Positions 8,773-60,096 are shown, counted from the stretch's first letter. The stretch is DNA of 64,000 nucleotides from an uncultured Candidatus Saccharibacteria bacterium (GCA_964450735.1 CAYVDC010000004.1:18829-82828); one strand, 5' to 3'. Made by a program: numbers and translations. Notes: generated by a model not told the origin, from the sequence alone.

Positions 8773-11700
8773 TTATTTGATCTTACTTATGAGGCTTCGC
8801 GTCAGCGGTCCAAAGAATCCGCTCGTCGGCTTGATACCATAAGCAGTCTGGAACTTAACCAAAGCCTTGAATGTAGCAGGACCGAAATAGCGAGTTTCAT
8901 TGCCAATTGATCCGGGACCAAACGCTGAGATTGGAAAACCGTGGCTATTCAAGAACTGCTGGAGTCTAAGAACATCGTCTGAGGTCATACCAAGCTTGAG
9001 ATCACGATTGAAGACATACGTCGTTGTTCCACCAGTTGAAGGATAGATAGGCGTGGTTGGAATAATTACGGGGGTTGATCCGATACTTGGAACAACCAAG
9101 CCGCTATTTCCAGGGAGAAGCACGACTCCGCCACTATTTGATACTGAAGGCGTAGGAGTTGGTACTACAGGCACGCTAACTTCAAAAGCTGAAACCGCTA
9201 ACGCGACTGAGGTGTTTCCTGCGCTATCAGTAATTGAGACTGTACAGTTTGTGTATGTTCCCCCGCCAAGAGTATTGAAAGTAATTGTATTTGAACCAGT
9301 GCTTGCTGACGTCGTAGGTGATGAACATGAGCCTCCGTATGACACAGTACCACCTTCATTTGTACTGAATACATAGTCAGGAGTGGTGTCAGTTGTCGGC
9401 GTCGTAATAGGAGTTACTTCGGTTAAGGTCGGAGGGTTAGTATCAATAACGATAGCCTTATTTGCCTCAAGGTTAGTTGCGGGTACGAAATCAGTCATAG
9501 CATTGCCCGCCTGATCAGCAATAGTTCCAGCAATAGTTTTAATATTCAAGTCGCTACTCAAATCCCCGGCTTGTACCGTGTAGTTACAGCTTGCAGATGA
9601 AGCGTTTGTAATAGTAAACGAGCAAGTCTGGTCAGTAATGCCAGTTTCGAGAGTGACAATTACTGAACCTGTCGAAGTAACAGCCTCTGAGAAGGTTACC
9701 TGGACGGCAATTACTTCCCCTGCTTTATATGAACCATCGGGCTTGCTTGAAGTGATGTTGGTAATTGTTGGAGGAGTTGTTTCGATAGTAAAGCTTGTAA
9801 CGGAAAGTGTATTTGAAACATTGCCGACAGTGTCAGTCACTTGGATCGTACAGTTTGAATAGGTGCCTACTGTAAGCGCGTTGAATGTGATCGTATTTGA
9901 TCCGCTTGTTGCTAAAGTTGTTGCAGATGAGCATGAACCTCCGTACGTGATAGTTCCAGCTTCTGTAGATCCGAATACATAGTTTGGCGTAGTGTCATTT
10001 CCAGGAGTAACAACTGGAGTCACCTGGGTAAGTGTTGGCCCTGCCGTATCAATAACCAATGCCTTGTTTGCAGCAAGGTTTGTAGCTGGCACAAAGTTCG
10101 TCATTGGATTTGCAGACTGGTCAGCAATTGTTCCTGAGATAGCATTCACATTCAAATCTCCGCTTGTGTCTCCTGCCTGAACAGTGTAGTTACATGAAGC
10201 CGAAGCGCTGTTTGAAACAGTAAACGTACATGTTCTGTCAGTCGCGCCTGTTTCAAGCGTGATAGTAACACTGCCAGTTGAAGTAACCGCTTCAGAGAAT
10301 GTAACCTGAATAGCGATCACTTCGCCGATGCCATATGTGCCGTTTGTCTTTGATGAGGTGATATTTGTAATTGTAGGAGCGTCTGCATCAATGGTTGTAA
10401 AGCTCCATGCAGTCGTGCTTGAAATGCCGGCGTAGCTATTTGTCGCGGCATCGCGGAATGCACCTGAATCAACTTGAACATAATATTCAGTAAAGCTTGC
10501 AAACGTTATTGAAGGATCGATTGTAATCGTTGTTGTTCCTGAACCTGTCACCTGTCCGCTTCCGACAGCAATAGTTTCTATTGTTGAATTATCAGATGTT
10601 TTTTTGATAGTAATATTACCAGTATTTGCTGTAACAGCTTCGGTGAATGTCATGACCAAGTTTGCAGTTGCAGAAACACCCGTAGCATTATCTAATGGCG
10701 AAAGGGTTGAAACAGTTGGGGCCGTAGTGTCTACTCTGAAAGTAGTGACACTGAGAGGTGTTGATGCGTTTAATGCTGCGTCTGTGACAGTAATCGTACA
10801 ATTACTATATGTAGCGTCAGTAAGCGTATTGAATGTAATGGTGTTGCTTCCAACAGTCGCAGATGTAGTCGCTGATGAGCATGAACCTCCGTAGGTAATA
10901 GTACCCGCTTCATTTATTGTAAATGTATAGTCAGGAGTTGCATCATTTGTTGGAGTCAAAACAGGAGTAACTTCCGAAATCGTTGGTGCAGTCACATCAC
11001 CGGATGAAGGAGTAACCGAGTTTGAAGCCGCTGACTGGCTGCTTGAACCAGCAGTGTTTGTTCCATACACTTTAAACGTATATGGCGTTGCCGAAAGACC
11101 GCTTACCGTAATCGGTGATGAACTTCCAGTTCCGGTAATGCTGCTCGGTGTTGAGATCGCAGTATAGGTAACATCCGCTCCCCCATCGAAATCTGAAATT
11201 GTAAATGCAACGTTTGCAGAACCTGCGCCAGCGGACGCTGTACCGATGGTTGGGGTGCTTGGAGCAACCACATCGGTGTATCCAATACGTGCCAAACCAT
11301 CACGCCATACATGGCCGATGATTGTTCGAGCTGCGTCATTTTCATGAATATGGTCATGACTCAATCCATCATAAATTGAATTAAGATTGCCAGATCCATC
11401 ATTCAAGAGATCAGTATGTCGGTATACGCGAGCATCCACGCCGGTAATTGGCGTTGCGCCATTGCCCTTGATAGCATCATTTACATCAAGCCATTTCTGA
11501 TAAGCAATCAATCCATTTGTAGAGCCGTACACATCGATATATCGTTGCTTCGCTGGTGTCATAGTAGCAATAACAATCTTTGAACCGGCCTTCTTGTTTG
11601 CGTTGATAGTCGTGATGAGGTCTTGAAGACGAGCAATGGCAACGCTTGCTGCTTCTGCAGGATCAAGGTCATTGAGTCCAATTTCAACGAACGTCACATC

Positions 11701-14514
11701 GAATGTTCCTCTGTTCCCTGTTGCGAGATAGGCTGTTTTTTGTTGCGCAATAGTATTGCCTGGTACCGCAATACTTGTAGCCGACCAGCCCAAATTTGAC
11801 TGCGCTGTTGTAAAGAGATAGTTAATGATCTGTGATCCTCCATCATACGTGGCAACAGTACTATCACCAATTGCAAGTGCGGTTCCATACACTGAGTACG
11901 AAAATGGTACATGGTTGGCAAGGGATCCATTGTTGGTAATTGAAATTGTTTTTGTTCCCGGTTGATATGGAGTGTAGGTAAATGTAGCTGTTGGTGAGCC
12001 TGAAGAAATCGAGACAGTGGTAGGAGTAAATGTTCCACCAGCACCACTATCGCTTGGAGTAACCACTACTGTGCCAGTAATCAAACCATCGGCCCCTATG
12101 CCAAAGGTGCTTGAAGCAACACCTACTGCCCCGCTTGAAGGAGCAGTCATGGTAATAGTTGTGGCTGGTCCATTGGGATTTGCGGTAAATGCGAATCCTG
12201 CTGGATTCGTCAATGCATCATTGTTTGTAAGAGAAATTGTTTTTGCTCCCACTGATTCAGGAGTATACGTAAATGTTGCAGTAGGAACAGATGGTGTAAG
12301 AGTGACGCTTGTTGGAGTAAAAGTTCCGCCATCACCGCCGTCATTTGGTGTCACAACAACATCATATGCAAGTGTGCCGTCTACACTCACCGTAAAATTT
12401 GTTGAGGCTAGGGTTGTAAGTCCAGACGATGGGCCTGACAATGAGATGTTAGCCGCTGCTGCTGCGAGAGTAGCATGGACACCAATTCGTGTGCTGTTCA
12501 AATCACTGTAGATAGCAACATGCTGCAATCTACCGCCGACGTAACCACCAGCTCCACCGTTTGACATCAAGTACAATGAAAGATTTCCGAACGCATTTGT
12601 GTTGTTATTTAAAAATGGCCTTGAAGTCGGGGTTACTAATGTTCCATCTATATAAGTATCAACCTCGTTGGCTGGCTGAGTTTTATCGAACACTGTAACA
12701 ACATGATGCCAGGCACCAACTGTTGGACGAGTATAGAGAGCGCCATTATAGCCAACGTTTCCAAAAAGTGCAGTCAGTGCGTCGGCGGTGCTACCACTAG
12801 TTCCTCCATCCACAACATAGCCAAATGTCCCATTTGTTTGTCCAAGGCTGGTACCATATCCCCATAGATTTTTTGGTGATATCGATCCATACGTAGGGAT
12901 ATACACCAATCCTTCAACAACTAATTTGCTATATGAAGAAAGACTGAGTGCCGAAGCAGAGACTGCATAATCATTTACACCATCAAACGAAACAGCTGTA
13001 CCGCCAGTTTTTCCCACAGCACCAACGGTGGCACCACCAGTGAGCGTGAGTGCGGTTCCACCGACTGTAGCGGCAAGCGAAGTACCCGATGATTCATTCA
13101 TTTTCCAGTAGTAAAGCAAGTTGCTCTCCGCTCCCACTGTTTGCGTATAAGTAGCAATAGTAGCAAAGTAACTGACTGAGCTTGGATTTACCAGTCCACC
13201 ATTGTTTGTAACTGAAATAGTTTTCGTACCTGTTGAACCTGCAGTGTACGTGAAAGTTGCAGTTGGTGAGCCTGCTGAAATAGCTACGCTCGTTGGGGTA
13301 AATGTTCCCCCACCGCTTGAATCACTTGGGGTTACTGTCACAGTTCCTGAAATTGCTCCGTCTGCACCGACAGTGAAATTGGTCGAGGCAAAAGCGACAC
13401 TACCACTTGAGGGACCAGAAAGTGTTACCGCCGTTGCTGCGTTACTTGAGACATAACTAAGTGAGCTAGGATTCGAGAGACTTTGATTGTTTGTTACAGA
13501 AATTGTTTTCGTTCCTGTTGATGCAGGCGTATACGTGAAAGTTGCAGTAGGAGTCCCCGAAGAAAGCGTAACCGTAGTTGGAGTAAAGGTTCCACCGTTT
13601 CCTCCATCGCTCGGAGTAACAATAGTGCTTGCTGCAAAAGTAGCATTTCCTCCAACAGTAAAGTTTGTCGATGCAACGCCATTCAACCCGTTAGTAGGAC
13701 CGGTAAGTGTAATTGCTGTCGCTGTATTCAAAAGATCAGCATGCGCTGCAATTCGAGCAGCGCTCAAGTCGCTATAAATAGCAAGGTGTTGCATTGAACC
13801 TGGAGAAAAAACAGAAGTGCCAGCGCGGCTCATCAAATACAATGTGAGGTTGGCAAAGTTGTTCGTGTTATTAAAATCGTATGGACGAGAAGTTGCAGTT
13901 TGCAAAACACCGTCAATATAAAAAGCTACTTCACCACTTGAAAGGCTTTTATCATATACCGCAACAATATGGTGCCAGGCTGCTGCTGATTGGCGGTTAT
14001 ATAACGCAATACTATAGCTAGTATTACCTAACAGAGCAACGTTTGCAGCAGCCGTTGTGCCGTTTACTCCACCATCCCCTGCATAATAAAATGAGCCATT
14101 CGAACCACTAACATCAGTACCGTATTCCCAAATATTTCTAGCGGAAGTGGTAGGAGTTGGATATGACGGTATATACACAAGTGCTTCAACAACCACCTTA
14201 TTATATGCAGAAAGATTAAGAACTGAAGCTGTCGAAGCATAGTCATTTACTCCATCAAATGACACAGCTGCTCCGTCGATACGGCCAGTAGCTCCCGCAA
14301 CTGCACCATTACCCAAGTTAATATTCACTCCTCCAACAAGGGCAGTTTCAACCGTCCCTGAAGCCGCATCCATTGGCCAGTAGTATTTCAAGTTGGTTTC
14401 ACCTTGAACGACGTCTCGGTAGGCAGCAAAGGCGCCACTTGAGGTTAAACCGAAAGCCAAAAAGGCTATTAAAATAAGAAGAATTTTTTTGATGTACATA
14501 GCGTAGTACATCAA
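8773..14514 (-). CDS. giant secreted multidomain surface protein (1913 aa): signal peptide, two LamG/concanavalin-like modules, repeated Ig-like (Big) modules, SGNH/GDSL hydrolase module, C-terminal PG_binding_1 domain
   Basis: N-terminal MMYYAMYIKKILLILIAFLAFGLTSSGAFA. The LamG-like segment YYW…GGT…VSFDGVNDY…GLVYIP…WHHVV…YIDG occurs twice. Repeated ...TGTKTISVTNN... Ig-like units. AIGDSTVA … DHIH (SGNH catalytic Ser and Asp/His). C-terminal LKLGMTSDDVLRLQQFLNSHGF…FGPATFKALVKFQ peptidoglycan-binding motif. Confidence 0.8.
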   Translation of the reverse strand: MMYYAMYIKKILLILIAFLAFGLTSSGAFAAYRDVVQGETNLKYYWPMDAASGTVETALVGGVNINLGNGAVAGATGRIDGAAVSFDGVNDYASTASVLNLSAYNKVVVEALVYIPSYPTPTTSARNIWEYGTDVSGSNGSFYYAGDGGVNGTTAAANVALLGNTSYSIALYNRQSAAAWHHIVAVYDKSLSSGEVAFYIDGVLQTATSRPYDFNNTNNFANLTLYLMSRAGTSVFSPGSMQHLAIYSDLSAARIAAHADLLNTATAITLTGPTNGLNGVASTNFTVGGNATFAASTIVTPSDGGNGGTFTPTTVTLSSGTPTATFTYTPASTGTKTISVTNNQSLSNPSSLSYVSSNAATAVTLSGPSSGSVAFASTNFTVGADGAISGTVTVTPSDSSGGGTFTPTSVAISAGSPTATFTYTAGSTGTKTISVTNNGGLVNPSSVSYFATIATYTQTVGAESNLLYYWKMNESSGTSLAATVGGTALTLTGGATVGAVGKTGGTAVSFDGVNDYAVSASALSLSSYSKLVVEGLVYIPTYGSISPKNLWGYGTSLGQTNGTFGYVVDGGTSGSTADALTALFGNVGYNGALYTRPTVGAWHHVVTVFDKTQPANEVDTYIDGTLVTPTSRPFLNNNTNAFGNLSLYLMSNGGAGGYVGGRLQHVAIYSDLNSTRIGVHATLAAAAANISLSGPSSGLTTLASTNFTVSVDGTLAYDVVVTPNDGGDGGTFTPTSVTLTPSVPTATFTYTPESVGAKTISLTNNDALTNPAGFAFTANPNGPATTITMTAPSSGAVGVASSTFGIGADGLITGTVVVTPSDSGAGGTFTPTTVSISSGSPTATFTYTPYQPGTKTISITNNGSLANHVPFSYSVYGTALAIGDSTVATYDGGSQIINYLFTTAQSNLGWSATSIAVPGNTIAQQKTAYLATGNRGTFDVTFVEIGLNDLDPAEAASVAIARLQDLITTINANKKAGSKIVIATMTPAKQRYIDVYGSTNGLIAYQKWLDVNDAIKGNGATPITGVDARVYRHTDLLNDGSGNLNSIYDGLSHDHIHENDAARTIIGHVWRDGLARIGYTDVVAPSTPTIGTASAGAGSANVAFTISDFDGGADVTYTAISTPSSITGTGSSSPITVSGLSATPYTFKVYGTNTAGSSSQSAASNSVTPSSGDVTAPTISEVTPVLTPTNDATPDYTFTINEAGTITYGGSCSSATTSATVGSNTITFNTLTDATYSNCTITVTDAALNASTPLSVTTFRVDTTAPTVSTLSPLDNATGVSATANLVMTFTEAVTANTGNITIKKTSDNSTIETIAVGSGQVTGSGTTTITIDPSITFASFTEYYVQVDSGAFRDAATNSYAGISSTTAWSFTTIDADAPTITNITSSKTNGTYGIGEVIAIQVTFSEAVTSTGSVTITLETGATDRTCTFTVSNSASASCNYTVQAGDTSGDLNVNAISGTIADQSANPMTNFVPATNLAANKALVIDTAGPTLTQVTPVVTPGNDTTPNYVFGSTEAGTITYGGSCSSATTLATSGSNTITFNALTVGTYSNCTIQVTDTVGNVSNTLSVTSFTIETTPPTITNITSSKPDGSYKAGEVIAVQVTFSEAVTSTGSVIVTLETGITDQTCSFTITNASSASCNYTVQAGDLSSDLNIKTIAGTIADQAGNAMTDFVPATNLEANKAIVIDTNPPTLTEVTPITTPTTDTTPDYVFSTNEGGTVSYGGSCSSPTTSASTGSNTITFNTLGGGTYTNCTVSITDSAGNTSVALAVSAFEVSVPVVPTPTPSVSNSGGVVLLPGNSGLVVPSIGSTPVIIPTTPIYPSTGGTTTYVFNRDLKLGMTSDDVLRLQQFLNSHGFPISAFGPGSIGNETRYFGPATFKALVKFQTAYGIKPTSGFFGPLTRSLISKIK

Positions 14515-14563: not shown

Positions 14564-15148
14564 TTACTGGACTTGAGTCTTGGTATTTTTAGTTTTTTCG
14601 ATGATTTCCATCAATTTTTGAACCAAAACCTTGGGATCTTCATGGAAAATAACATTCTGAGTTGGATATTCACCTCGAGAAACGATTTCTTTGACGAGTG
14701 GAGCGATGCTTCCCTCTCCTTCAAGCACGCCAACTGGCTTGCTTTCCTGGAAAGCGACAGTAAATTCATTAACCGTTCCCACTCGCCCACAGCCAACAAT
14801 GATAGCGTCTGCGCTCCTGGAGAATAACAAATCACGGCCAGGTTCGCCGAATCCTGTATAAATAACGGCGTCAGTATATAACAGCGGCATACGATAGACT
14901 TCAGCATGTTCTTTTTCACTGCTTGCTGGGGATAGGCCGATGACAAAGCCCTTTTCTTCTTTAGCGCCCATGGCTGCCCACATTGGAAAACCCGAAGAAG
15001 CACCGGTAAGCAAAATGCCGCCTTGGCGTGAGATCTCGCGTCCAAGCTCTTTTGCTTGGTCGAGAGCATTGATGCCGCATGTTCCTGTTTCAGTTGCACC
15101 AGCAACACCAATTTTTATTTTGAGATAGTTGTGTTTTCCTGCTTGCAT
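14564..15148 (-). CDS. LOG-family / TIGR00725 Rossmann-fold nucleotide-binding protein
   Basis: IGVAGATETGTCG … ILLTGASSGFPMWAAMGA … GFGEPGRDLLFSRSADAIIVGCGRVGTVNE resembles the LOG/YgdH-like family. Confidence 0.55.
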   Translation of the reverse strand: MQAGKHNYLKIKIGVAGATETGTCGINALDQAKELGREISRQGGILLTGASSGFPMWAAMGAKEEKGFVIGLSPASSEKEHAEVYRMPLLYTDAVIYTGFGEPGRDLLFSRSADAIIVGCGRVGTVNEFTVAFQESKPVGVLEGEGSIAPLVKEIVSRGEYPTQNVIFHEDPKVLVQKLMEIIEKTKNTKTQVQ

Positions 15149-15152
15149 AGTT

Positions 15153-16532
15153 TTAACAATCTAACGTTACGCTTGTTCCTGCATCTGGAGCAACTGCACT
15201 CACACCCAAGAAATCTCTGAGCTTTTGGACCAAAAACAGCGCTGCTTTGGGTTCACCCATGACTACAAAGACTTTTTTGAGGCTGTCTGCCGTATTTGCC
15301 ACAAAATCAGTGAGCGCGTCAGTGTCTTTGTGTCCTGAATACCCGCTGATTTTTTCGATATGCGCGCGCACGGCGACTTTTTCATGCATGATCATTACCT
15401 CAGTAGCGCCTTCTTCTATCTTGCGGCCGAGTGTACCTTGAGACTGGTAGCCGATCAAAAGAATCGTGTTGTTTGGGTCTGGAAGATAATTGAGTTCATG
15501 GTGAATAATTCGTCCCCCGTTAGACATGCCTGACCCTGCGATGACAATTTTTGGATTTGGAATATGAACGATTTCTTTTGAATCTTTTGTATCGTCGGTA
15601 ATGCGCAGTCCTGGAAAGGAAAAAATATCAGCATCTTTTTTAATATCTGCCTGCACCATTGGATTGAAGTACTCAGAGTATTTTTTAAATACAGAAGTGA
15701 GTTTGATACCAAGCGGTGAATCGAAATACACAGGCATCTTTGGAATGCGCTCGTTTTCAACCAGAGTATTCATTTCATAAAGAAGTTCCTGGCTGCGCTC
15801 AAGCGAGAATGTAGGCATGATGAGAACTCCTTTTCGCTTGTAGTTGTCCTGTATGACTTCTTGCAATCGCTGCTTGCGGATCTCGCGATCTTCGTGCTTG
15901 CGGTCGCCATAGACGCTTTCCATGATGAGATAGTCAACGTTCTCGAGCTTCTCAGTATCTTGCAGAATTGGCGACGGTGAGTTTCCCAGGTCGCCAGTAA
16001 AGACAATTTTCTTGCCATAGAAGGTGAACTCGATCATTGATGAACCAAGCACATGGCCAGCATCAAGCAATCTAAATGAAAAATCAGGACCGAGCTCCAC
16101 TACTTTGTGGTATGGATACCCTTCCCAGAGGCTGATTGCATGCTTGATGTTTTCTTCGCCGTACATCGTGCGAAGATCATGTTCCTTGTCCTTGGTAACA
16201 ATAGCTGCAGTATCCTCAAGCATTGGATAAGTAAGTTCTTTGGTCGGCGGGGTTGAATAAATAACGCCTTTAAAGCCCTCCTCTATGAGTTTTGGTATAC
16301 GGCCGATGTGGTCAATATGGCAATGCGTGATAAATAGCGCATCGATCTCAGCTGGATTGTATGGAAATGGGCCCCAGTTTACTTTGTCAGCGATGCTTTC
16401 ACCCTGGATCATGCCGCAATCGACAAGAAGCTTCTTGCCGTCGGCTTCGATAAGAAAATTTGCACCAGTTACCGTGCCCGCACCGGAGCAGAAAGTAATT
16501 TTGAACGGGTGCGTTGTGTTAGTGTCTGTCAT
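15153..16532 (-). CDS. MBL-fold beta-CASP ribonuclease (RNase J / CPSF-like)
   Basis: HCHIDHIGRIP (HxHxDH motif), beta-CASP spacing, C-terminal His. Start set at MTDTNTTHPFKITFCSGAG (ATG 16532). The listed upstream extension to 16601 is encoded by the inverted-repeat element and is probably not coding. Confidence 0.7.
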   Translation of the reverse strand: MTDTNTTHPFKITFCSGAGTVTGANFLIEADGKKLLVDCGMIQGESIADKVNWGPFPYNPAEIDALFITHCHIDHIGRIPKLIEEGFKGVIYSTPPTKELTYPMLEDTAAIVTKDKEHDLRTMYGEENIKHAISLWEGYPYHKVVELGPDFSFRLLDAGHVLGSSMIEFTFYGKKIVFTGDLGNSPSPILQDTEKLENVDYLIMESVYGDRKHEDREIRKQRLQEVIQDNYKRKGVLIMPTFSLERSQELLYEMNTLVENERIPKMPVYFDSPLGIKLTSVFKKYSEYFNPMVQADIKKDADIFSFPGLRITDDTKDSKEIVHIPNPKIVIAGSGMSNGGRIIHHELNYLPDPNNTILLIGYQSQGTLGRKIEEGATEVMIMHEKVAVRAHIEKISGYSGHKDTDALTDFVANTADSLKKVFVVMGEPKAALFLVQKLRDFLGVSAVAPDAGTSVTLDC

Positions 16533-16560
16533 TACTGATAAGTATACAGTATTGGTGAGC

Positions 16561-16699
16561 AAAATCCCAAGCATATTCAAAATAATTTCTCCGCAAACCA
16601 AGGCCCCGTCTCGGGCTAGCGCCTCTTCGCGGGGTTTCGCCGGCGGAAAGCAGCAGCCGGCTCATGCTACGAAATTATTTTGAATATGCTTGGGATTTT
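16561..16699. repeat. 139-bp element: perfect 29-bp inverted repeats (aaaatcccaagcatattcaaaataatttc) flanking an 81-nt GC-rich core
   Basis: Seen directly. IR arms at 16561–16589 and 16671–16699 are exact reverse complements. The core 16590–16670 has internal hairpins ccccg…cgggg and gccggc…gccggc. Confidence 0.6.
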
Positions 16700-18527: not shown

Positions 18528-18555
18528 AAATCCGATAACCGACCTGAATAAACAC

Positions 18556-18580
18556 AAAACCCGCTTGCAGGCGGGTTTTG
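18556..18580. terminator. bidirectional terminator aaaacccgc-ttgcag-gcgggtttt (third, complete copy of the cccgcttgcaggc repeat core)
   Basis: Perfect 9-bp stem with flanking A/T runs, between convergent genes. Confidence 0.65.
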
Positions 18581-18602: not shown

Positions 18603-19115
18603 TTATTTCTTCTTTGGCTGAGTGAACTTTTCGTGTGCAGTTGTGTAATCGAAGAGTTCTTCAGGCTTGAACCAGTGCTCGATTTCGAGCTTTGCTTCTT
18701 CAGCATCGCCAGAAGCGTGCATGAGGTTAGGAATACCGATCTCATGTGTGTCAGCGTGACCGTAGCTCACATGTGAGTAGTCGCCGCGAACAGTTCCTGG
18801 AAGAGCGCTCTTTGGCTCTGTAGCGCCAACCATCTTGCGGACGAGAGCAGCTGCTTCAACGCCTTCGAGAACGAAAGCGATGACAGGACCTGCGTTCATC
18901 ATTTCAAGAGTGATGTCGAAGACCTTCTGTCCTCGGCGTGAGATCACTTTGCCGATGTTCTCATAGTGGTGATGATAGTGCTCAGTTGTCGGTCGGAGCA
19001 TCTTGTTTCCGACGATCTTGAGGCCTACCTTCTCGAATCGAGCGAGGATTTCTCCTACAAGTCCGCGCTGTACAGCGTCAGGCTTGAAGAGGATGAGTGT
19101 GCGTTCTAGTTGCAT
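18603..19115 (-). CDS. ndk: nucleoside diphosphate kinase
   Basis: LILFKPDAVQRGLVGEI…GNKMLRPT…NLMHASGD (active-site His) matches NDK. Confidence 0.9.
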   Translation of the reverse strand: MQLERTLILFKPDAVQRGLVGEILARFEKVGLKIVGNKMLRPTTEHYHHHYENIGKVISRRGQKVFDITLEMMNAGPVIAFVLEGVEAAALVRKMVGATEPKSALPGTVRGDYSHVSYGHADTHEIGIPNLMHASGDAEEAKLEIEHWFKPEELFDYTTAHEKFTQPKKK

Positions 19116-19178: not shown

Positions 19179-19751
19179 TTATTTCTTTATTTGTTCCTTG
19201 AAGGTAAGAACCTTGTATGAATCTTCATCAAAACCCCTTTTCTTGTATACTGCCCTACTTGAACCGCTTACACGCTCTTCCCAATTCAAGCCAAGTTTCA
19301 ATGCCATCGCCTGAACAGCGTCCCAACTTTTTCCTTCGATTTCTACATGCGGATCGAGTAGCGGCCAAGTATCGATATCTACTTCAACACCGTCCAAAGT
19401 ATATCGAGTGCGCTTATTTTCTACATATATAAGCTCAACAAGACCAATTGCGGCAAGAATTTTTTCTGTTTCTTCAAAATTGCTGACTTTTACTTCGAGC
19501 TCATTCATTCCCCCTCCCAAAAGTTCTTTTGAACTTGCTACTCCAAATCGCTGTTTGTAGGTAAGAGTAATCTGCTCCCCTTCATCTCTCAAACGTATCC
19601 AACCGCCGTCTTTATCCAAGCGGCCATCCGGGAAGTCAAAAACTTTGCGGCGATAATTATAATCACCCACTTTAACCGCACCAAACGAAAGAAGCTTCTG
19701 TTCCAAAGCTTCTTTGTGTATATCCAAAAATTTTACTTCAATCTCTTCCAT
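19179..19751 (-). CDS. CYTH-domain protein (class IV adenylyl cyclase / triphosphate tunnel metalloenzyme family)
   Basis: N-terminal EIEVKFL (CYTH ExExK motif). About 190 aa, with Arg/Glu/Lys pattern typical of CyaB-like proteins. Its ATG overlaps the upstream gene's stop (TAATG). Confidence 0.6.
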   Translation of the reverse strand: MEEIEVKFLDIHKEALEQKLLSFGAVKVGDYNYRRKVFDFPDGRLDKDGGWIRLRDEGEQITLTYKQRFGVASSKELLGGGMNELEVKVSNFEETEKILAAIGLVELIYVENKRTRYTLDGVEVDIDTWPLLDPHVEIEGKSWDAVQAMALKLGLNWEERVSGSSRAVYKKRGFDEDSYKVLTFKEQIKK

Positions 19752-22495
19752 TATGAATTCGAATTATAGTTATAACGTCCCATGATCTCTGCTTCCACTT
19801 CTTCACGATCGCGGCCGAATTTGAGGTATGAAAGCTCTTTGAGTTTTGCTGCCATCTCGGGTGAGCCCTTTGGAGGAAATGGCGTATGTGAGTTAAATGG
19901 CTTTACCGGCATTCCGTTTACCAGCATCTTGATGTAGCAGTTCAAGTTCTCAAGCTTCAAGATATCCTTTGGAGTAAATTCAGGCTCAAATTGTTTTGAG
20001 AATATTTCAGCGTTCTCTGGAGACACACGATGCACTACCATAGTACCAACGTTACCGAAGACGGCGTTCTTGATATTGTCTTCAAGCTGTTCGACGTATT
20101 GGTGGGCAATGTTAAGCGAGAGGCGGTATTTACGAGCCTCAGACAAGATCACTTCGATCGAGTCAGTCGTGATGTTCTGGAATTCGTCGATGTACAAATA
20201 GAAATCATGAACCGGTACGCCAGTTCCCACGATGTCCACACGGGAAAGCGCAGCCATGGTGATCTTTCCAACAAGAATGAGACCAATCAAGTTCGCGTTG
20301 ATATCTCCAAGTCGTCCTTTTGAAAGATTCACTAAGAGAATCTTTTTGTTGTCCATGATCTCGCGGAAATTGAACACGGATTTTTCTTGAGCAACTACCG
20401 GGCGCATGATGTCGTTTGAAATAAACACGTCGAACTTGTTGGTAACATACGGCACGAAGTTCGCAAGTGATTGTTCACCTGACGTCTGCTCGGCATTTGT
20501 CCAGAATTGCTTGATGATTGGGTTCTTGCAGCGTGAAAGTTTGAGGTCGCGGAATTCTTTGTCAGCCAGCACGCGGCCGATCTCAAGAAGCGTCATTCCT
20601 GACGATGGGTCTTCCATCACGAGCAATGCAGAGTTACGGAAGTATTGTTCGAAAGCCGGACCGCCGGCAGTTTTCATATCGAAGAGCTTGTTGAAGATAG
20701 CCAAGAGTTCGTTTACCACGAATGTCTTTTGTTCAGGATACTTTGGATCGTATTCCAACATGTTCAATCCCATCGGGCGATCGATGTATGCAGGGTCAAA
20801 GTAGATCACATCATCAATACGTTCCTTTGGAATGTTTGCGAGAATGTCTTGGATATCTGAACCGTGTGGGTCGATAAAGCAAACACCGTCGCCGTTTTTG
20901 ATATCCTGAATAATCATATTTTTCAAGAACACCGTCTTACCAGTACCAGTTTGTCCGATAACATAGGTGTGGCGAACACGGTCTTCGCGAGCCATGTATA
21001 CATCGTTGAACTGTCCACGATACTCGTTTTGTCCGAGCAAGATTCCCTGAGGATTCATTTCCATTGGAAGCGGAGCTGTTGCGGCTTTTGCCTGCTTGAG
21101 CTGCGGAGTTCCTGAGACGCCGATTGGGAAATGGAATACTGATGCAAGTTCCTTGAGGTTCATAGCGAGCAATTCTTCTTCTCGCATCTGGCGATATGAA
21201 TAGTCGCGGAAGAATTGATCAGCATCGCGCTCATCAGTACGGTGCCATTCAATACGGTTTGCCAATGGCTCATTGAACTGGTTGAAAGCAGACTCGATCT
21301 CGCGAACAATGTCTTTGGAACGTTCCTTGGTTGCCCCTGATGCAACAATGCGGATACCAGCATATACGACAGTGCTCTTGAGCTTGTTTTGGATATTCTC
21401 GATATCTTTTTGATTAGCTTCTTTTTTGTCCTTTTCGCTATCGCTTCCAGCCAAGAGATCTTTGACCAAGAAAAAAGTCTGACGGGCAACTGAATGCATC
21501 TGTTTGACAGCCTCTCGCGCGCGGATCTTTTCTTCTTTGACGCGATGGAGTACATGGGAAAATTCTTTGACGAGCTTCTCCCCTGCTGGGACAATAATAA
21601 ATTGAAGCGATGCGCCTTCGCCAGAAGCCTTGAGTTTTGAAAATGCGTTCACGATCGTTCCCATTGGATCATGCTCGATAGCGTCGTGTGTCTTGATCGG
21701 ATAGACTTCTGTTTCTCCAAAGTGCGCATACGATCCTACTGCGTATCCGTCTTCGGTAAAAACATTGTAATCATCGGTAATCTCACGAAGCTTTGCGTCC
21801 TGGTAGAATCCTAGAATCTGCTTTTCAAAAAGATCTACTTTGTCGGTAGGAATAGCTGCATAGAACATCACCTGGTTTCCGTTGTTTGAAATTGCAATCT
21901 CAAGCGTGTAGTAGCGGCGAGAGCTATTGTTAGTTCCGCCGACATTTAACATACCAGCATAAAATTGCTCCATAGCTTGGATAAACTCTTTGTAACCTTT
22001 GGCGTTGTCTTTGTCTTCTTCTGGAAGTGTGATCTCAAAAAGCTTCATGTCCACGCCTTTCCAGATCGGGTTCGTTTCAGTCAGTCCAGGAACACCATGC
22101 GTTGCATGCAAATACTGCACAAGAAATCTGTGAAAGTCGCTATCAACGTGCGGGTTGTGGAGGCCGGCAACAACGTCGAGTGCGGTCTTGATGCCGCGAT
22201 CCATAAGGATACCGAGGAGTTCCTCCATTTTGCGATCATGTGTTTCTGGCTTGAGCTTGAGTACAAGTTCTTCAACCTTGTGTTCAGGCATGACGCGAGT
22301 TTCGTGGAGAATATCTTTTGCATCAGCGATCTTGTATGACTCAATCACTTCTTGAGTAACCTGCACCTTTTCTGCCTCCCCTCCCTGCCCGTTCTCAATC
22401 TGCTTCTCGCGCTCAGCGATCTTTTCACGCAAAAAAGCGATCTCTTCTTCGGGAGTTTTAAACTTTGGTGATGCGCCTAATTGAAGTCCTTCCAT
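19751..22495 (-). CDS. large P-loop ATPase, HerA/VirB4/VirD4(TraG)-like AAA-like (DUF87-type) C-terminal domain, with a 450-aa N-terminal domain of unknown function
   Basis: Walker A HTYVIGQTGTGKTV. Walker B-like YLYIDEFQN followed by LSEARKYRLSLNIAHQYVEQL (arginine-finger/Q motif region of HerA/VirB4/TrwB-type ATPases). No TM segment seen. Confidence 0.55.
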   Translation of the reverse strand: MEGLQLGASPKFKTPEEEIAFLREKIAEREKQIENGQGGEAEKVQVTQEVIESYKIADAKDILHETRVMPEHKVEELVLKLKPETHDRKMEELLGILMDRGIKTALDVVAGLHNPHVDSDFHRFLVQYLHATHGVPGLTETNPIWKGVDMKLFEITLPEEDKDNAKGYKEFIQAMEQFYAGMLNVGGTNNSSRRYYTLEIAISNNGNQVMFYAAIPTDKVDLFEKQILGFYQDAKLREITDDYNVFTEDGYAVGSYAHFGETEVYPIKTHDAIEHDPMGTIVNAFSKLKASGEGASLQFIIVPAGEKLVKEFSHVLHRVKEEKIRAREAVKQMHSVARQTFFLVKDLLAGSDSEKDKKEANQKDIENIQNKLKSTVVYAGIRIVASGATKERSKDIVREIESAFNQFNEPLANRIEWHRTDERDADQFFRDYSYRQMREEELLAMNLKELASVFHFPIGVSGTPQLKQAKAATAPLPMEMNPQGILLGQNEYRGQFNDVYMAREDRVRHTYVIGQTGTGKTVFLKNMIIQDIKNGDGVCFIDPHGSDIQDILANIPKERIDDVIYFDPAYIDRPMGLNMLEYDPKYPEQKTFVVNELLAIFNKLFDMKTAGGPAFEQYFRNSALLVMEDPSSGMTLLEIGRVLADKEFRDLKLSRCKNPIIKQFWTNAEQTSGEQSLANFVPYVTNKFDVFISNDIMRPVVAQEKSVFNFREIMDNKKILLVNLSKGRLGDINANLIGLILVGKITMAALSRVDIVGTGVPVHDFYLYIDEFQNITTDSIEVILSEARKYRLSLNIAHQYVEQLEDNIKNAVFGNVGTMVVHRVSPENAEIFSKQFEPEFTPKDILKLENLNCYIKMLVNGMPVKPFNSHTPFPPKGSPEMAAKLKELSYLKFGRDREEVEAEIMGRYNYNSNS

Positions 22496-22557: not shown

Positions 22558-22971
22558 ATGAACAAAAAATACATTCTTGGTCTCGTCTGCATCGCCATCG
22601 TCGCAGCATTAGTAATCTATGCTTCTGTCGCCGACAAAAAAGCCTCTACCGAGAAACCAGCACCTGCTACCGCAGAAGAAACTGATTTGGGAGTAACAGG
22701 TACTGGAGCCGTACAGCAGCCAGCATCAAGCAAGTACCCTGCTTTCGTACAGACATTTATCAATACCCACAGCACCGGCCAGGTCATCAAGTTCAATTTG
22801 AACAACAATACCTACTACTCGTTCCGCACCAGCTTTGCTTCAGGAGCAGGAACAACGCTCTATGACAAGAACGGAAACCTCGCGGCAAACTGCGCAGGAG
22901 CAGTCGGACCAGAAGAAAAGAACGAGCTTTGCAAGCAGTCAGGAATGGGAGAAGTTATCTGGAAAAGATAG
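22558..22971 (+). CDS. small secreted/membrane-anchored hypothetical protein
   Basis: N-terminal hydrophobic segment ILGLVCIAIVAALVIYA. TATACT -10 element lies about 12 nt upstream. Confidence 0.45.
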   Translation: MNKKYILGLVCIAIVAALVIYASVADKKASTEKPAPATAEETDLGVTGTGAVQQPASSKYPAFVQTFINTHSTGQVIKFNLNNNTYYSFRTSFASGAGTTLYDKNGNLAANCAGAVGPEEKNELCKQSGMGEVIWKR

Positions 22972-22975
22972 GAAA

Positions 22976-23008
22976 ATAAAAAAACACCTTAAGGGTGTTT
23001 TTTTATTT
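22976..23008. terminator. bidirectional terminator aaaaacaccc-ttaa-gggtgttttt
   Basis: Perfect stem with flanking A and T runs, between convergent genes. Confidence 0.7.
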
Positions 23009-23015
23009 CCGCAAA

Positions 23016-23498
23016 CTATTCTTTCTTAGCTAGATCTCGAATGTAGTCTCGAATCTTCTTGAGCTCATCAATTTCAGTTTTATCATACATCACCTGTTCG
23101 CTATCAGGGTTTGCCATATCAACTGAAAGAGCATTCTGGAGCATTGTCTCAACAATCTTTGAAAGTTCTTCAGTTCTACCGAAGTCTTCAAGACCACGAA
23201 GCGCTTCCTGAAGGTCATCAGGACTTATGCCCTTAGCATATCCCTTTCGATCTCTCTGGCCTTCGGGTAAGCCATGATTAAAAGGCTCACCTCGGCCTTG
23301 GTTACTTTTGAGATGTACCCAAGTGGTTATTTCTTCCAACTTTTTTTTATTTGCTTCCTCCTTTGCTTTAGCTGCTTTTGACTCTGTAGTTGAAAAACCT
23401 GAAAGTCCCACTTTTTCAAGAGGCACATTAGCTGCTTTTTTAATTTTTTCAGTAATTCCAGTAATTCGTCCCCCGTAACCTCCCATTCTTTCTGTCAT
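23016..23498 (-). CDS. hypothetical protein (160 aa)
   Basis: ORF with no recognisable motif. Confidence 0.4.
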   Translation of the reverse strand: MTERMGGYGGRITGITEKIKKAANVPLEKVGLSGFSTTESKAAKAKEEANKKKLEEITTWVHLKSNQGRGEPFNHGLPEGQRDRKGYAKGISPDDLQEALRGLEDFGRTEELSKIVETMLQNALSVDMANPDSEQVMYDKTEIDELKKIRDYIRDLAKKE

Positions 23499-26629: not shown

Positions 26630-28144
26630 CTAGTTTGAGGGAGAAAGAAGCTTTTCTTCTAGTTTTTCAATAAAAGTATCTCTTGTCGTCCCCTCTTCAA
26701 GAAGACATTCAATAGCTGAGCTCAAGTGGTACTTGATCACAGCAGCGGGAAGCTCATCAATATTGTCGATGTTGTCACATAAAATAGTCCAAACCAAATT
26801 AGGATCAACTTTGTTTAGAAGTTCCGTATACTCTCGACGCTCGCTAGATGTAAGTTGTGTGCCTAAAGGATCCAATGATTCAGTAAGTTTGCCACGCATT
26901 TCATCAAACAACTTCGCTTGTTCAAATGAACCAGTAAAAGTCTTAAATAATTCTGCGTGGGGCGTAAACTTTGAATCGATACTATCTTTTTGAAGCATCC
27001 CTTTTTCACCAAAAGCGAATTCTCTCACTTTGTCTTCCTGTGTTCCAAGGTCGGCAAGATCAGGATATGCATCATGGATTTCCTTGAACAAAGGATCTGT
27101 CGCAAATCTCTCCGGGCTGATAAGCCGGAAAAACCCAAAGGCATACGCTTTCATTAAGTACTCTTTGGTATCTTCTGCAAGTTCTCTATCAGAAATGCCT
27201 GCTGTGGCTTTTTCTACCGAATGCAGGTAACTATTCATATGGCTTCGAATATACCGCATGATCGCAGGACGTTCTGAAACAAATTCTTCAAAAACAGACT
27301 GGTGAAAATTGAGGGACCATAGTTCCCCAGCAAAGACTGAGCTTGATACGCTAGCATCTTGAATTGGAGTGTTATTAAAATCTCTCGTTAAAGATTCATT
27401 TCCACCCGCAGCAAGGATCACGCTATCTGCGGAATTCGCACCACCAGGCAAGAATGCTGTATGCGAAATAAGATCATGATTGAACCATGTTGCCATTTCT
27501 TGCAGTTTTGTAGCAATATTTTTTGACTCTGAATTTTGACGGATCTGTGCAAGCGGTTCTTCTTCCAAGACGATAGTGCCCTGATTGAATCCAGACATGG
27601 TTGGGTGAAACTTATCACGAAAATGTGAGAAGCCGAACAACAATTCCCAATTGCGCTTTTTATTTACCATTATTGGATCAAAAAATCCTAACGATACTTT
27701 TCTTCCATCTTCAAGCTGTTTGGTTCCCGCAAGCATTACCCCATTGATGCTTTTTTCTTTTCTTAAATCCTTCAGCTCTTTAAAATATTCTTTTGAAATA
27801 AGCGATGTTGTAGCAGAAACTACCGTTTTATCAGGCATTGTTTTTGCAAGGACATCATGTTTTTCTATTGAAACTTTTTCTATTGAGACGCCGGCGACCT
27901 TAAAAAATGGATCGTTCTTTGCATTAATCTCTGGATCAAATCCGAGAGTGCTTTTGACAGTTTTTTTGTATAAATCTATCTCCTCGTTTCGGATCTGCTC
28001 GAGCGTATAATCTGATAGATCATCCATAGACCTGGAAAAAGCTTCTGTGACTTCTTCATTGCTTTTGAATAGTAAATTCTCTTTGTTTACCAATAATTTT
28101 CCTTCTGTCTTTTTGTTATTCTCGATTGCTGGCATTTCCATCAT
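26630..28144 (-). CDS. hypothetical protein, 504 aa, no recognisable domain; monocistronic insert between secY and adk
   Basis: Long ORF flanked on both sides by intrinsic terminators. Confidence 0.5.
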   Translation of the reverse strand: MMEMPAIENNKKTEGKLLVNKENLLFKSNEEVTEAFSRSMDDLSDYTLEQIRNEEIDLYKKTVKSTLGFDPEINAKNDPFFKVAGVSIEKVSIEKHDVLAKTMPDKTVVSATTSLISKEYFKELKDLRKEKSINGVMLAGTKQLEDGRKVSLGFFDPIMVNKKRNWELLFGFSHFRDKFHPTMSGFNQGTIVLEEEPLAQIRQNSESKNIATKLQEMATWFNHDLISHTAFLPGGANSADSVILAAGGNESLTRDFNNTPIQDASVSSSVFAGELWSLNFHQSVFEEFVSERPAIMRYIRSHMNSYLHSVEKATAGISDRELAEDTKEYLMKAYAFGFFRLISPERFATDPLFKEIHDAYPDLADLGTQEDKVREFAFGEKGMLQKDSIDSKFTPHAELFKTFTGSFEQAKLFDEMRGKLTESLDPLGTQLTSSERREYTELLNKVDPNLVWTILCDNIDNIDELPAAVIKYHLSSAIECLLEEGTTRDTFIEKLEEKLLSPSN

Positions 28145-37084: not shown

Positions 37085-38623
37085 ATGGAACGATTAAAAA
37101 ACAAAGACCTCATCAAGAAAATTTTTGACAGAGGCATAGTTGGGACCAATTTCCTTAAACCTATCACCTTCAAATCGCGTATCCGTTCATGGATATATTG
37201 CGACTGGCGCAAAGCCTGCGGCCACCCCGATTTGATGGATGATATAAAAGAGGGGCTTGCAGAGATTGTAAGAACCGCTCCTATTACAGCTGATGCAGTA
37301 TTTGGAGTAGCAACCGGTGCTATTCCGCACGCCACGCTTCTTGCGCAGCACTTAAAGCTGCCATTTGGCTATGTGCGCCCTGATGCCAAAGCAAAAAATT
37401 ACGGCTTAGGCAAAAGAGTAGAAGGCACTGATGTAAAAGGCAAAGTAGTATTATTGGTAGAAGACTTAAACTCAACAGCAACCAGCATGATAGAAAATGC
37501 TGCTATCTTAAAAGAAGAAGGCGCTGCCGAAGTTATTCTGTTATCAATATTTACTTACAACCTGGCAGAAGCAAATGCAAATATTGAGAATTCCGGCTTA
37601 CGGTACTACTCATTACTGAGCATTAATGACTTATTGCCGTACTTGAAGGAACAATTGGATGTAGATCAATTTGTATCTGCAACTGATTGGATACAAGACC
37701 CACGCGCATGGTTTGATAAATACAAAACCACATTCAATTTTGGTTTTCTAACCACACTTCGTAAATCGGCAAAACAAGCCGGTAACATTGCGTGCATGGG
37801 CCTTGATCCTGTGCTGGAATCACTACCAAATGAATTCAGCTCGCAAGGGGTTCGGGGCATATACAGCTTTTACAAAGTTTTGTTTGAGGCAATGCGCACT
37901 GCAAATCTTTCGCCGGCGATGTTTAAGCCTAATGAAGGATTTTTCTCTTCACTCAATAATGGCTTCGAAGGAAGCTTTGTGGGAGACGAAACTTTGAGCA
38001 AGGTTAATGCGTTGGTAAGAGATATTTTCTTTGGCATTCCTCTTAATATAGATGCAAAGAGAGGCGACATTGGAAAATCATCAGATAATTACGCTAAAGA
38101 GTATTACTGTGGTTGGAAAACTGAAGCCATGACTATTCATACTTACATGGGCAAAGATTCAGTTATGCCTTTTGTTAAATACTGTTCAGCCGAAAAATGC
38201 TGCGGAGTATACGCATTAGACAGAACATCGAACCCCGGCGGTAATGATTTTCAAACACTGCTTATCGGCAATGAACCGCTTCATAGTATTGTTGGCGGAA
38301 AAATTATCGAATGGGGCACGGGCGCTTATGGTTTGGGAGCAGTAGTAGGAGCAACATCTATCGAAGAACTTTCTTTTTTAGCTAAAAAGTTTGCAGGTAA
38401 AGATGTTCCATTACTTGTTCCTGGCGTTGGCGATCAAGGCGGTAAAGCGCCTGATGTGATGCATGCGTTACATATGGCGAAGTACGAAATAGAGTTGGCG
38501 CGCATTAACAGCTCGTCAAAACTAACACACCCTTGGGGAACAAACGAGGCACCGAGTAACTGGCTTGAACTTTGTTTAAACAATATTAAACAGTTATGCC
38601 ACGAAACAAACATTGCGGCATAA
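37085..38623 (+). CDS. pyrEF: bifunctional orotate phosphoribosyltransferase / OMP decarboxylase (pyrE–pyrF fusion, type-2 OMPDC)
   Basis: N-terminal half has the PRTase type I PRPP loop VVLLVEDLNSTATSMIENAA and the OPRT flexible loop. C-terminal half has CMGLDP, NIDAKRGDIGKSSDNYAKEY and LLVPGVGDQGG, the three type-2 OMP decarboxylase signatures. Confidence 0.75.
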   Translation: MERLKNKDLIKKIFDRGIVGTNFLKPITFKSRIRSWIYCDWRKACGHPDLMDDIKEGLAEIVRTAPITADAVFGVATGAIPHATLLAQHLKLPFGYVRPDAKAKNYGLGKRVEGTDVKGKVVLLVEDLNSTATSMIENAAILKEEGAAEVILLSIFTYNLAEANANIENSGLRYYSLLSINDLLPYLKEQLDVDQFVSATDWIQDPRAWFDKYKTTFNFGFLTTLRKSAKQAGNIACMGLDPVLESLPNEFSSQGVRGIYSFYKVLFEAMRTANLSPAMFKPNEGFFSSLNNGFEGSFVGDETLSKVNALVRDIFFGIPLNIDAKRGDIGKSSDNYAKEYYCGWKTEAMTIHTYMGKDSVMPFVKYCSAEKCCGVYALDRTSNPGGNDFQTLLIGNEPLHSIVGGKIIEWGTGAYGLGAVVGATSIEELSFLAKKFAGKDVPLLVPGVGDQGGKAPDVMHALHMAKYEIELARINSSSKLTHPWGTNEAPSNWLELCLNNIKQLCHETNIAA

Positions 38624-60023: not shown

Positions 60024-60096
60024 ATGCTGTTAAGTGTAGCACTGCTTATTTTTAAATACTATTGGAGTAATGCACAGTTTGCTATACTTCATATAT

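Follow-up and report, generated by a model that had tools for sequence, protein, structure and literature searches.

The DNA analysed here, hereafter the window, is a stretch of 64,000 nucleotides (nt) from an uncultured Candidatus Saccharibacteria bacterium (CAYVDC010000004.1:18829-82828), which at positions 19,179 to 22,495 carries two genes placed end to end: the first encodes a P-loop ATPase of 914 amino acids (aa) and the second a CYTH protein (triphosphate tunnel metalloenzyme) of 190 aa, with both genes starting on ATG (Table 1). At their junction, CATAATGG, one A is common to the TAA stop codon of the ATPase gene and the ATG of the CYTH gene, so that the overlap reads TAATG. Using a greedy, ATG-only gene call this is the sole overlap among the 47 same-strand neighbour pairs of the window, 11 of which are spaced by 10 nt or less, and co-translation in the source genome is therefore likely. 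Both open reading frames (ORFs), their coordinates and the TAATG overlap had been described in an earlier reading of this DNA (the sequence-only reading) and are confirmed here; judged by their homologues, of which there are more than 2,100 for the ATPase and 922 for the CYTH protein, neither ORF arose by chance. We hold it to be probable, with moderate confidence, that these are two independent genes, one for an ATPase of the type IV coupling protein (T4CP) lineage that lacks a transmembrane (TM) domain and the other for a CYTH hydrolase rather than a cyclase.

The motor half of the ATPase is near-invariant across its family. All motifs that the sequence-only reading had named are present in the translation: Walker A, within the stretch HTYVIGQTGTGKT at residues 509-521, DEFQN at residues 770-774, SEARKYRLSL at residues 785-794 and QYVEQL at residues 799-804. 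Across an alignment of 106 family sequences, the R506/R508/H509 stretch is as invariant as Walker A itself, with Walker B near-invariant. Profile searches with Pfam returned weak partial matches to TrwB_AAD_bind, DUF87 and TraG-D_C near Walker A and at residues 765-835 (TrwB_AAD_bind: 24.8 bits, cut-off 20.5), and NCBIfam matches of the TraD/VirD4 type were far under their cut-offs. The only significant sequence match in the PDB is TrwB. When the 106-sequence family profile was compared with TrwB from plasmid R388 by hhalign (R388 sequence for TrwB and TrwK: NC_028464), residues 499-806 aligned with TrwB 115-393 (95%, E=3e-8), an alignment that spans Walker A, the all-alpha insertion and Walker B: the nucleotide-binding domain (NBD) with its Walker motifs and the inserted all-alpha domain are co-linear with those of TrwB. 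Foldseek comparison of the structure model (see below) with TrwB gave a target-normalised template modelling score (TMt) of 0.62-0.67 (about 0.66) and a root-mean-square deviation of 4.4-6 Å over about 420 columns at a structure-based identity of about 17%; the scores for HerA and Cag-beta were under that of TrwB. In NCBI the homologues go by the name 'type IV secretion system DNA-binding domain-containing protein', and an exact-sequence look-up of the window ATPase found no identical record.

No transmembrane helix was detected in the ATPase, the highest 19-residue Kyte-Doolittle mean being 1.7, inside the P-loop core; for comparison, TrwB has two segments at 2.15 and 2.48. Judged from its sequence, the protein is an intact, soluble P-loop motor of the T4CP (TrwB/VirD4) type, and its gene is fixed in a housekeeping operon. 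The domain assignment of the sequence-only reading was correct: among P-loop ATPases the protein falls into the VirD4/TrwB-HerA group, with TrwB best supported, and it qualifies by sequence as neither VirB4 nor HerA. For HerA, PF01935 matches only residues 508-545, the Foldseek match to HerA 4d2i (E=1e-12, TMt 0.54) has a lower TMt than that to TrwB and no NurA-like neighbour was seen; for VirB4, TIGR00929 scores 17.7 bits against a cut-off of 643, hhalign with TrwK (12.5%) covers Walker A only and there is no match to PF03135.

The N-terminal domain of 450 aa had been left unassigned in the sequence-only reading, and this N-terminal half of the protein now corresponds to Pfam PF26449 (DUF8128), an assignment taken from precomputed Pfam hits on homologues. 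Nearly every listed homologue carries PF26449, the ones with 95% and 64% identity among them, and in the more than 2,100 homologues (about 910 aa) it is combined with weak TrwB_AAD_bind/DUF87/TraG-D_C matches. Residues 1-470 alone, searched against 1.84 billion representatives, returned 947 clusters (50% identity). Full-length DUF8128 ATPases measure 880-1,120 aa, and a shorter form of 690-840 aa is devoid of the first ~145 helical residues, its match starting at about query residue 145. DUF8128 stands where canonical T4CPs have their transmembrane domain: while TrwB possesses such a domain, the window ATPase has a soluble, DUF8128-containing region of 470 aa instead. A T4CP subfamily that lacks the transmembrane domain is recognised in the literature (PMC7434980). 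TraJ of pIP501, a coupling-type ATPase of this kind, cooperates with TraI, a small membrane protein whose gene adjoins its own, whereas the ATPase from the candidate phyla radiation (CPR) has no conserved adjacent partner. Such a small partner gene was sought upstream of the CPR ATPase genes and not found, the upstream ORFs being mutually unrelated (e.g. ClpP, membrane proteins). Our literature search on DUF8128 retrieved no paper.

Two AlphaFold models of the ATPase were calculated. The first, from an alignment of 24 sequences, was good for the N-terminal half and poor for the C-terminal half (predicted local distance difference test, pLDDT, of about 45); the second (AF2), from the 106-sequence alignment that includes a divergent family branch, reached a pLDDT of 89.6 and a predicted template modelling score of 0.80. 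With the first model, of which the N-terminal half is reliable, VirB4 was the sole significant Foldseek match; with the second, the best E-values (2e-14) were to full-length VirB4/TrwK over about 900 columns at a template modelling score of only 0.25-0.33. VirB4/TrwK resembles the ATPase in length and in its two-domain layout (N-terminal alpha/beta domain, C-terminal ATPase), yet displays no sequence-level match past Walker A.

Relatives from outside the CPR carry the assignment further. The phage family phrog_5156 (PHROGs annotation: function unknown) matches residues 146-907 of the ATPase (E=2e-78), and tblastn located the two-domain core in phages of Bacillus and Geobacillus (21-25% identity), together with relatives in 235 plasmid records (Bacillus, Streptomyces, Clostridium, haloarchaea, Sulfolobus), some of these matches covering the motor half only. 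Two plasmid homologues annotated as 'DUF87 domain-containing protein' are the 886-aa protein of the B. subtilis MH-1 plasmid and the 833-aa protein of B. methanolicus pBM69. By hhalign, the CPR family profile and the MH-1 plasmid protein align over 653 columns (residues 175-871) covering both domains (100%, E=7.5e-45), and no transmembrane helix was found in the B. subtilis protein either. In both plasmids, the homologue lies immediately upstream of a gene for a replication-relaxation family protein, followed downstream by TcpE-like and other conjugal-transfer genes and then by a second large 'ATP-binding protein', which, going by how large it is and where it lies, we take for the VirB4 homologue. 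The plasmid protein occupies the place of the coupling protein and is presumed to be the coupling ATPase. Given the homology over two domains, the CPR gene is a chromosomal representative of a lineage of TM-less two-domain coupling ATPases that belongs to the mobile elements of monoderms and archaea. Most likely, it descends from a conjugative coupling ATPase and became fixed in the chromosome.

The CPR proteins share with the Bacillaceae plasmid ATPases and phrog_5156 the DUF8128 core and the motor, at an identity of 21-25% to the plasmid proteins, and differ from the latter through an additional helical N-terminal extension of 145 aa that is found in the CPR subfamily only. Their settings are also different: the plasmid genes are located beside relaxase and type IV secretion system (T4SS) genes, whereas the CPR gene lies between map and ndk. 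T4CPs are as a rule encoded with a relaxase or T4SS, which the window and the related loci lack and only the distant plasmid homologues have; in contrast to conjugative TrwB/VirD4, the window ATPase is chromosomal and fixed in a housekeeping operon. In the literature searched, no characterisation of the Bacillaceae plasmid or phage homologues was found. Phage members of the two-domain family are Bacillus phage G gp156, Geobacillus TP-84 gp48 (L106:6908-9172) and proteins of CP-51, JL, Shanette and SP-10; the TP-84 gene lies in the early region, upstream of a RecB-like/Erf/replication module, and several of these phage proteins are mislabelled as 'lipid A export ATP-binding/permease protein MsbA'. 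Scanning IMG/VR did not recover the two-domain form, only ATPase-only paralogs 28-41% identical to the motor half (L090:7956-9704 and the 14 loci L091-L104; about 360-450 aa, some longer, without DUF8128). Most of them are situated on contigs of high GC content (54-65%), while L090 (34% GC) is a CPR-like chromosomal stretch on which the gene stands beside a serine recombinase, a type III restriction-modification system and a reverse transcriptase.

The identification of the second protein as a CYTH protein is upheld, with a clear Pfam match (PF01928, E=3.8e-17); the role of a regulatory cyclase suggested for it is not. The closest solved relative is the Sulfolobus triphosphatase SaTTM (Saci_0718; 7ns8), the similarity to which is weak (phmmer E=2.8e-4) and which has a small residue where the window protein has W51; the ExExK, WxRxR and ExE motifs and the basic and acidic tunnel residues of SaTTM and thiamine triphosphatase (ThTPase)-type CYTH enzymes are all kept. 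Catalytic and tunnel residues E3, E5, R53, R55, K66, E84, R114, D127, E137 and E139 are invariant in 25 sequences. Class IV adenylate cyclases such as CyaB belong to the same CYTH fold family, and Vogt et al. described three determinants that part them from the hydrolases: an HF motif four residues before ExExK, a small residue where xxRxR has its first Arg and a strict Ala in place of the second Glu of the ExE on beta8 (PMC8233210). The window protein fails all three. An HF motif is impossible, since ExExK starts at residue 3 (M-E-E-I-E-V-K), and both the first Arg of WxRxR (R53) and the second Glu of ExE (E139) are retained and invariant; the aromatic residue of W/YxRxR, moreover, marks ThTPase-type enzymes (PMC8233210). 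The cyaB profile TIGR00318 scores 43.2 bits, under its trusted cut-off of 57.95. With its motifs in the hydrolase state and a cyaB score below cut-off, the protein is most likely a triphosphatase and not a cyclase, and the names 'class IV adenylate cyclase' and 'adenylate cyclase class 2' that NCBI and JGI give to its homologues are probably over-annotations. The enzyme, catalytically intact by its residues, would hydrolyse a triphosphate (inorganic triphosphate, thiamine triphosphate or a nucleoside triphosphate, NTP) rather than make cyclic AMP (cAMP), and would belong functionally with the adjoining nucleotide-phosphate genes (ndk, adk, UMP-kinase-like, HAD). In the absence of any cyclase determinant, the idea that a cyclic nucleotide signals to the ATPase has lost its footing.

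The sequence-only reading had further described the translocase as hard-wired to its CYTH partner, a description that the relatives do not support. A scan of one genome per species identified at least 594 genomes with a relative of the ATPase; the best 80 loci were analysed by searching all of their ORFs with the window proteins and the CYTH profile, and 75 of them contain enough downstream sequence to be assessable. The ATPase homologues come from metagenome-assembled genomes of Candidatus Nomurabacteria, Paceibacterota and Minisyncoccia. The recurrent order in the 80 loci is map-ATPase-ndk, with ndk starting at most ~250 nt past the ATPase stop codon in 38 of the 75 assessable loci. A CYTH ortholog (N-terminus MEEIEVKF...) directly adjoins the ATPase gene in only 7 of these 75 and lies 1.2-3 kb downstream in four further loci; counting any CYTH in the available flank, including up to two paralogs that usually stand past ndk, the number rises to 16 of the 80. 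CYTH-adjacent loci are interspersed among ndk-adjacent ones on a neighbour-joining tree of the ATPase. Where the two genes adjoin in these seven loci, they are spaced by 0 to 28 nt, and two other loci show a 1-nt overlap and a 2-nt gap: as the spacing varies from a 1-nt overlap to a 28-nt gap, the TAATG overlap itself is not conserved. The neighbourhoods of four distant members of the ATPase family (P0473, P0492, P0477, P0404) contain no CYTH gene. Conversely, two of the three CYTH orthologs looked up (P0138 and P0196, 53-55% identical) lie among unrelated genes without an adjoining ATPase, the third reproducing the window arrangement.

For the most part, then, the pair is not kept together in relatives, an outcome that the sequence-only reading itself had named as refuting its proposal. 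In their position the CYTH genes follow ndk at least as closely as they follow the ATPase gene, and their return to this place in several clades is best explained by an old gene order with frequent losses. The ATPase and CYTH genes are a case of local gene adjacency, neither a two-component module nor a defence system. Related genomes hold up to three CYTH paralogs around ndk (L022, L023, L027, L071, L084, e.g. L084:7203-7754, and others), one type of which starts with MHEIETKVLEV; paralogs sit past ndk in L014, L035 and L084. A second CYTH paralog or remnant was sought in the window and none was found.

The surroundings of the two genes are of a housekeeping nature. The window holds the genes for EF-G and EF-Tu, S10/spc ribosomal genes, secY, adk, a UMP-kinase-like AA_kinase gene, map, the ATPase and CYTH genes and ndk, with genes for a HAD hydrolase, an RNase J-like beta-CASP enzyme, a SLOG protein and infC farther along. 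This backbone (spc operon-secY-adk-AA_kinase-map-ATPase-(CYTH)-ndk-...-RNase J-like-SLOG-rplT-infC) also surrounds ATPase homologues of 50-64% identity. Within the 64 kb, no T4SS, relaxase, pilus or defence gene was found. PADLOC gave only weak matches of P-loop type for the ATPase (mad8, HerA, DndH) without matching a system, and no match for the CYTH protein; together with the housekeeping surroundings and the lack of a defence island, this leaves the proposed defence module without support. A terminator scan detected one hairpin upstream of the ATPase gene and one just past ndk, with no terminator-like element between the CYTH gene and ndk. From the position of these hairpins, the transcription unit in the source genome is probably ATPase-CYTH-ndk with its 3' end likely at the hairpin past ndk, while map and a 160-aa ORF are parted from the ATPase gene by the upstream one.

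Table 1. Features of the ATPase-CYTH-ndk region, in window coordinates.
Feature	Position	Strand	Basis and remarks
Hairpin with T-run (17 bp) after the 160-aa ORF	22972..23010	minus	Terminator scan; upstream of ATPase gene
ATPase gene	19751..22495	minus	914 aa, ATG start, stop codon included
Helical N-terminal extension, aa 1-145	22061..22495	minus	Model helices 15-132; specific to the ~910-aa subfamily
DUF8128 core, alpha/beta domain, aa 146-470	21086..22060	minus	PF26449 on homologues; plasmid and phage alignments
T4CP-type motor, aa 471-914 (NBD, inserted all-alpha domain, C-terminal helical tail)	19754..21085	minus	hhalign and Foldseek against TrwB
Walker A GQTGTGKT, aa 514-521	20933..20956	minus	G514, G517, G519 and K520 invariant in 106 sequences; aligned to TrwB Walker A
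All-alpha domain, aa 589-715, between Walker A and Walker B	20351..20731	minus	Model helices; TrwB alignment passes through
Walker B region YIDEFQN, aa 768-774	20174..20194	minus	D770, E771, F772, Q773 and N774 kept in at least 90% of 106 sequences; aligned to TrwB Walker B
TAATG stop/start overlap, ATPase/CYTH	19749..19753	minus	TAA 19753-19751, ATG 19751-19749
CYTH / triphosphate tunnel metalloenzyme gene	19179..19751	minus	190 aa, ATG start
ExExK motif, E3-I-E5-V-K7	19731..19745	minus	Extreme N-terminus of the CYTH protein; translation, alignment
WxRxR motif, W51-I-R53-L-R55	19587..19601	minus	W51 in at least 90%; R53 and R55 invariant
ExE motif on beta8, E137-I-E139	19335..19343	minus	Both Glu invariant
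ndk	18603..19115	minus	PF00334, E=7.5e-38; third gene of the probable unit here
Terminator-like bidirectional hairpin just past ndk	18555..18580	both	Stem of 10-11 bp, 6 GC pairs, T-rich tail

Between map and the ATPase gene, which in the 80 related loci are usually direct neighbours, the window contains two ORFs to which nothing in those loci corresponds: the 160-aa ORF, which is charged (23016-23498, minus strand), and a 137-aa ORF (22558-22971, plus strand) with an N-terminal hydrophobic segment, likely a secreted or membrane protein. Between secY and adk lies a gene for a 504-aa protein without family match (26630-28144, minus strand), at a place where relatives have nothing or a small gene. 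The RNase J-like beta-CASP gene is paired with that of the SLOG (LDcluster4) protein (14564-16601, minus strand), and the position of this pair is kept in relatives L084, L087 and L088. Three proteins of the window carry a PG_binding_1 (peptidoglycan-binding) domain, all encoded on the minus strand: one of 1,913 aa with Big_5/filamin repeats (8773-14514), one of 1,006 aa with Kelch repeats (56709-59729) and one of 660 aa (62003-63985); they look like typical CPR surface or host-interaction candidates. On the plus strand, a 512-aa ORF (37085-38623) joins phosphoribosyltransferase and orotidine monophosphate decarboxylase domains in an apparent pyrE-pyrF-like fusion, and a 610-aa protein (60070-61902) carries both an HTTM and a DCC1-like thiol-disulfide oxidoreductase domain.

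On the best explanation, the ATPase and CYTH genes are separate housekeeping genes of a Paceibacteria-type CPR bacterium with a small genome, and share one tightly packed transcription unit with ndk. The ATPase would use ATP and form a ring as TrwB does, and this ring would engage and move DNA or a nucleoprotein or protein substrate, with the DUF8128 domain providing docking or oligomerisation in place of a membrane anchor. It may feed a Patescibacteria T4SS encoded elsewhere or act in an exapted, T4SS-independent role. Patescibacteria possess a T4SS homologous to monoderm conjugation machinery and encoded near dnaA (PMC12102498), and Wang et al. reported no recognisable coupling protein in the T4SS cluster of S. 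epibionticum (PMC10633639). Homology to the plasmid coupling ATPases makes a role in T4SS coupling the most economical reading, and we tentatively suggest, at rather less than even odds, that the ATPase is the coupling protein missing from this T4SS. A second T4CP-like ATPase of about 498 aa (T4SS-DNA_transf/TrwB_AAD_bind) was observed in one Nomurabacteria genome, 5 kb upstream of the DUF8128 ATPase (L062:2792-4288), in keeping with the literature, where each genome has roughly two T4CP homologues.

Several observations weigh against this picture. There is no T4SS gene in the window or in any examined locus, so that a link to the T4SS is unsupported by context; in S. epibionticum, moreover, the T4SS is essential and the T4CP homologue dispensable (PMC12102498), a homologue that may or may not be of the DUF8128 family. 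The likeness of DUF8128 to the N-terminal domain of VirB4 comes from Foldseek alone and hhalign with TrwK finds the Walker A region only, hence homology between these two domains is not established. Concerning the independence of the two genes, their co-translation in the source genome is likely and some stoichiometric link between the products is conceivable; the recurrence of CYTH in separate clades could likewise stem not from chance but from an ancestral ATPase-CYTH-ndk operon with repeated loss. The substrate of the CYTH enzyme, finally, is derived from its motifs.

Exaptation provides the best-surviving alternative: the ATPase could be a former coupling protein that now works independently of the T4SS on the cell's own chromosome, as a soluble ring translocase resembling FtsK, with a part in segregation, dimer resolution or some other DNA transaction. 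VirD4-type T4CP homologues are present in 2,918 of 3,035 Patescibacteria genomes (96%) compared to VirB4 in 2,417 (80%), and only 148 of 5,713 T4CP homologues lie near virB4; the authors themselves raised exaptation (PMC12102498). The fixed housekeeping location, the extremely conserved motor domain and a weak FtsK_SpoIIIE match at the Walker A region fit this explanation, as do the neighbourhoods of two distant family members, a lead towards a task in cell division or at the chromosome: in one, a small unrelated ORF overlaps the start of the ATPase gene by 4 nt and a XerC/D-type recombinase gene and divIC follow (L086:6669-7004 and 9432-10819), and in the other ftsA-ftsZ lie about 6 kb upstream of an ATPase gene that adjoins adk-map-ruvX-recO (L085:156-1307). 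However, such division-gene neighbourhoods occur in single loci only, the nearest homologues with informative context are conjugation genes and the T4CP homologue of S. epibionticum is non-essential (PMC12102498), and we consider this explanation possible, if unlikely. A more specific version has the DUF8128 ATPase domesticated early in Paceibacteria as a T4SS-independent core motor, within an ancestral ATPase-CYTH-ndk operon in which triphosphatase and NDK tuned the local nucleotide supply; the present pair would then be the relic of a real if dispensable functional link, a scenario that we regard as distinctly unlikely.

The ATPase might otherwise be the cytoplasmic motor of a DNA-uptake route, comparable to the archaeal Ced system or ComFA, that feeds imported DNA to nucleotide salvage. 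This would explain a neighbourhood rich in nucleotide-phosphate enzymes, with adjoining adk, UMP-kinase-like, ndk, CYTH, HAD/HD and RNase J-like genes, and would suit CPR bacteria, which lack de novo nucleotide synthesis (PMC10633639); NCBIfam also returned weak CedB/CedD matches at the Walker A region. These matches nevertheless cover the P-loop only and are far under their cut-offs, no comEC or pilus genes lie nearby, and the gene order is also that of an ordinary spc operon tail, which need not reflect function. Competence in S. epibionticum depends on ComEC, the loss of which leaves viability unaffected (PMC12857230). We rate such a role as improbable, and the DNA-uptake machine with a regulatory cyclase envisaged by the sequence-only reading is unsupported, as the CYTH protein reads as a hydrolase. 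Least credible of all, and hardly to be entertained, is a true functional pair in which the CYTH protein makes or destroys a nucleotide or triphosphate signal controlling the translocase within a defence or signalling module: the 1-nt stop/start overlap, unique in the window, the tight adjacency (1-nt overlap to 28-nt gap) in at least nine other loci of several clades and the weak mad8 and HerA matches of the ATPase speak in its favour, but about 90% of the related loci lack the pair, as do all four distant members that we looked at, and the CYTH protein has orthologs apart from the ATPase, paralogs past ndk, no PADLOC match, no cyclase determinant and ribosomal and nucleotide-metabolism genes rather than a defence island around it.

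A translocase wired to a cyclase would, if true, have pointed to a new signalling or defence system; on the evidence, this reading falls away. Orphan T4CP homologues of Patescibacteria, the Pfam family DUF8128 and T4CPs without a transmembrane domain were already known in outline; what we add is the homology of the two-domain core of the ATPase to presumed coupling ATPases of Bacillaceae plasmids and to phrog_5156, the fixed map-ATPase-ndk position of the DUF8128 ATPase and the re-annotation of its CYTH neighbour as a hydrolase. The probable mislabelling of this CPR CYTH family as cyclases bears on any claim of cAMP signalling in CPR organisms. The orphan T4CP homologues of Patescibacteria (PMC12102498) include a well-defined TM-less family, made up of DUF8128 and a motor and fixed between map and ndk in Paceibacteria. 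The DUF8128 ATPase is hence a concrete candidate, with comparators, for the question left open by PMC12102498 (2025) of whether the CPR T4SS has a coupling protein or has lost it to exaptation.

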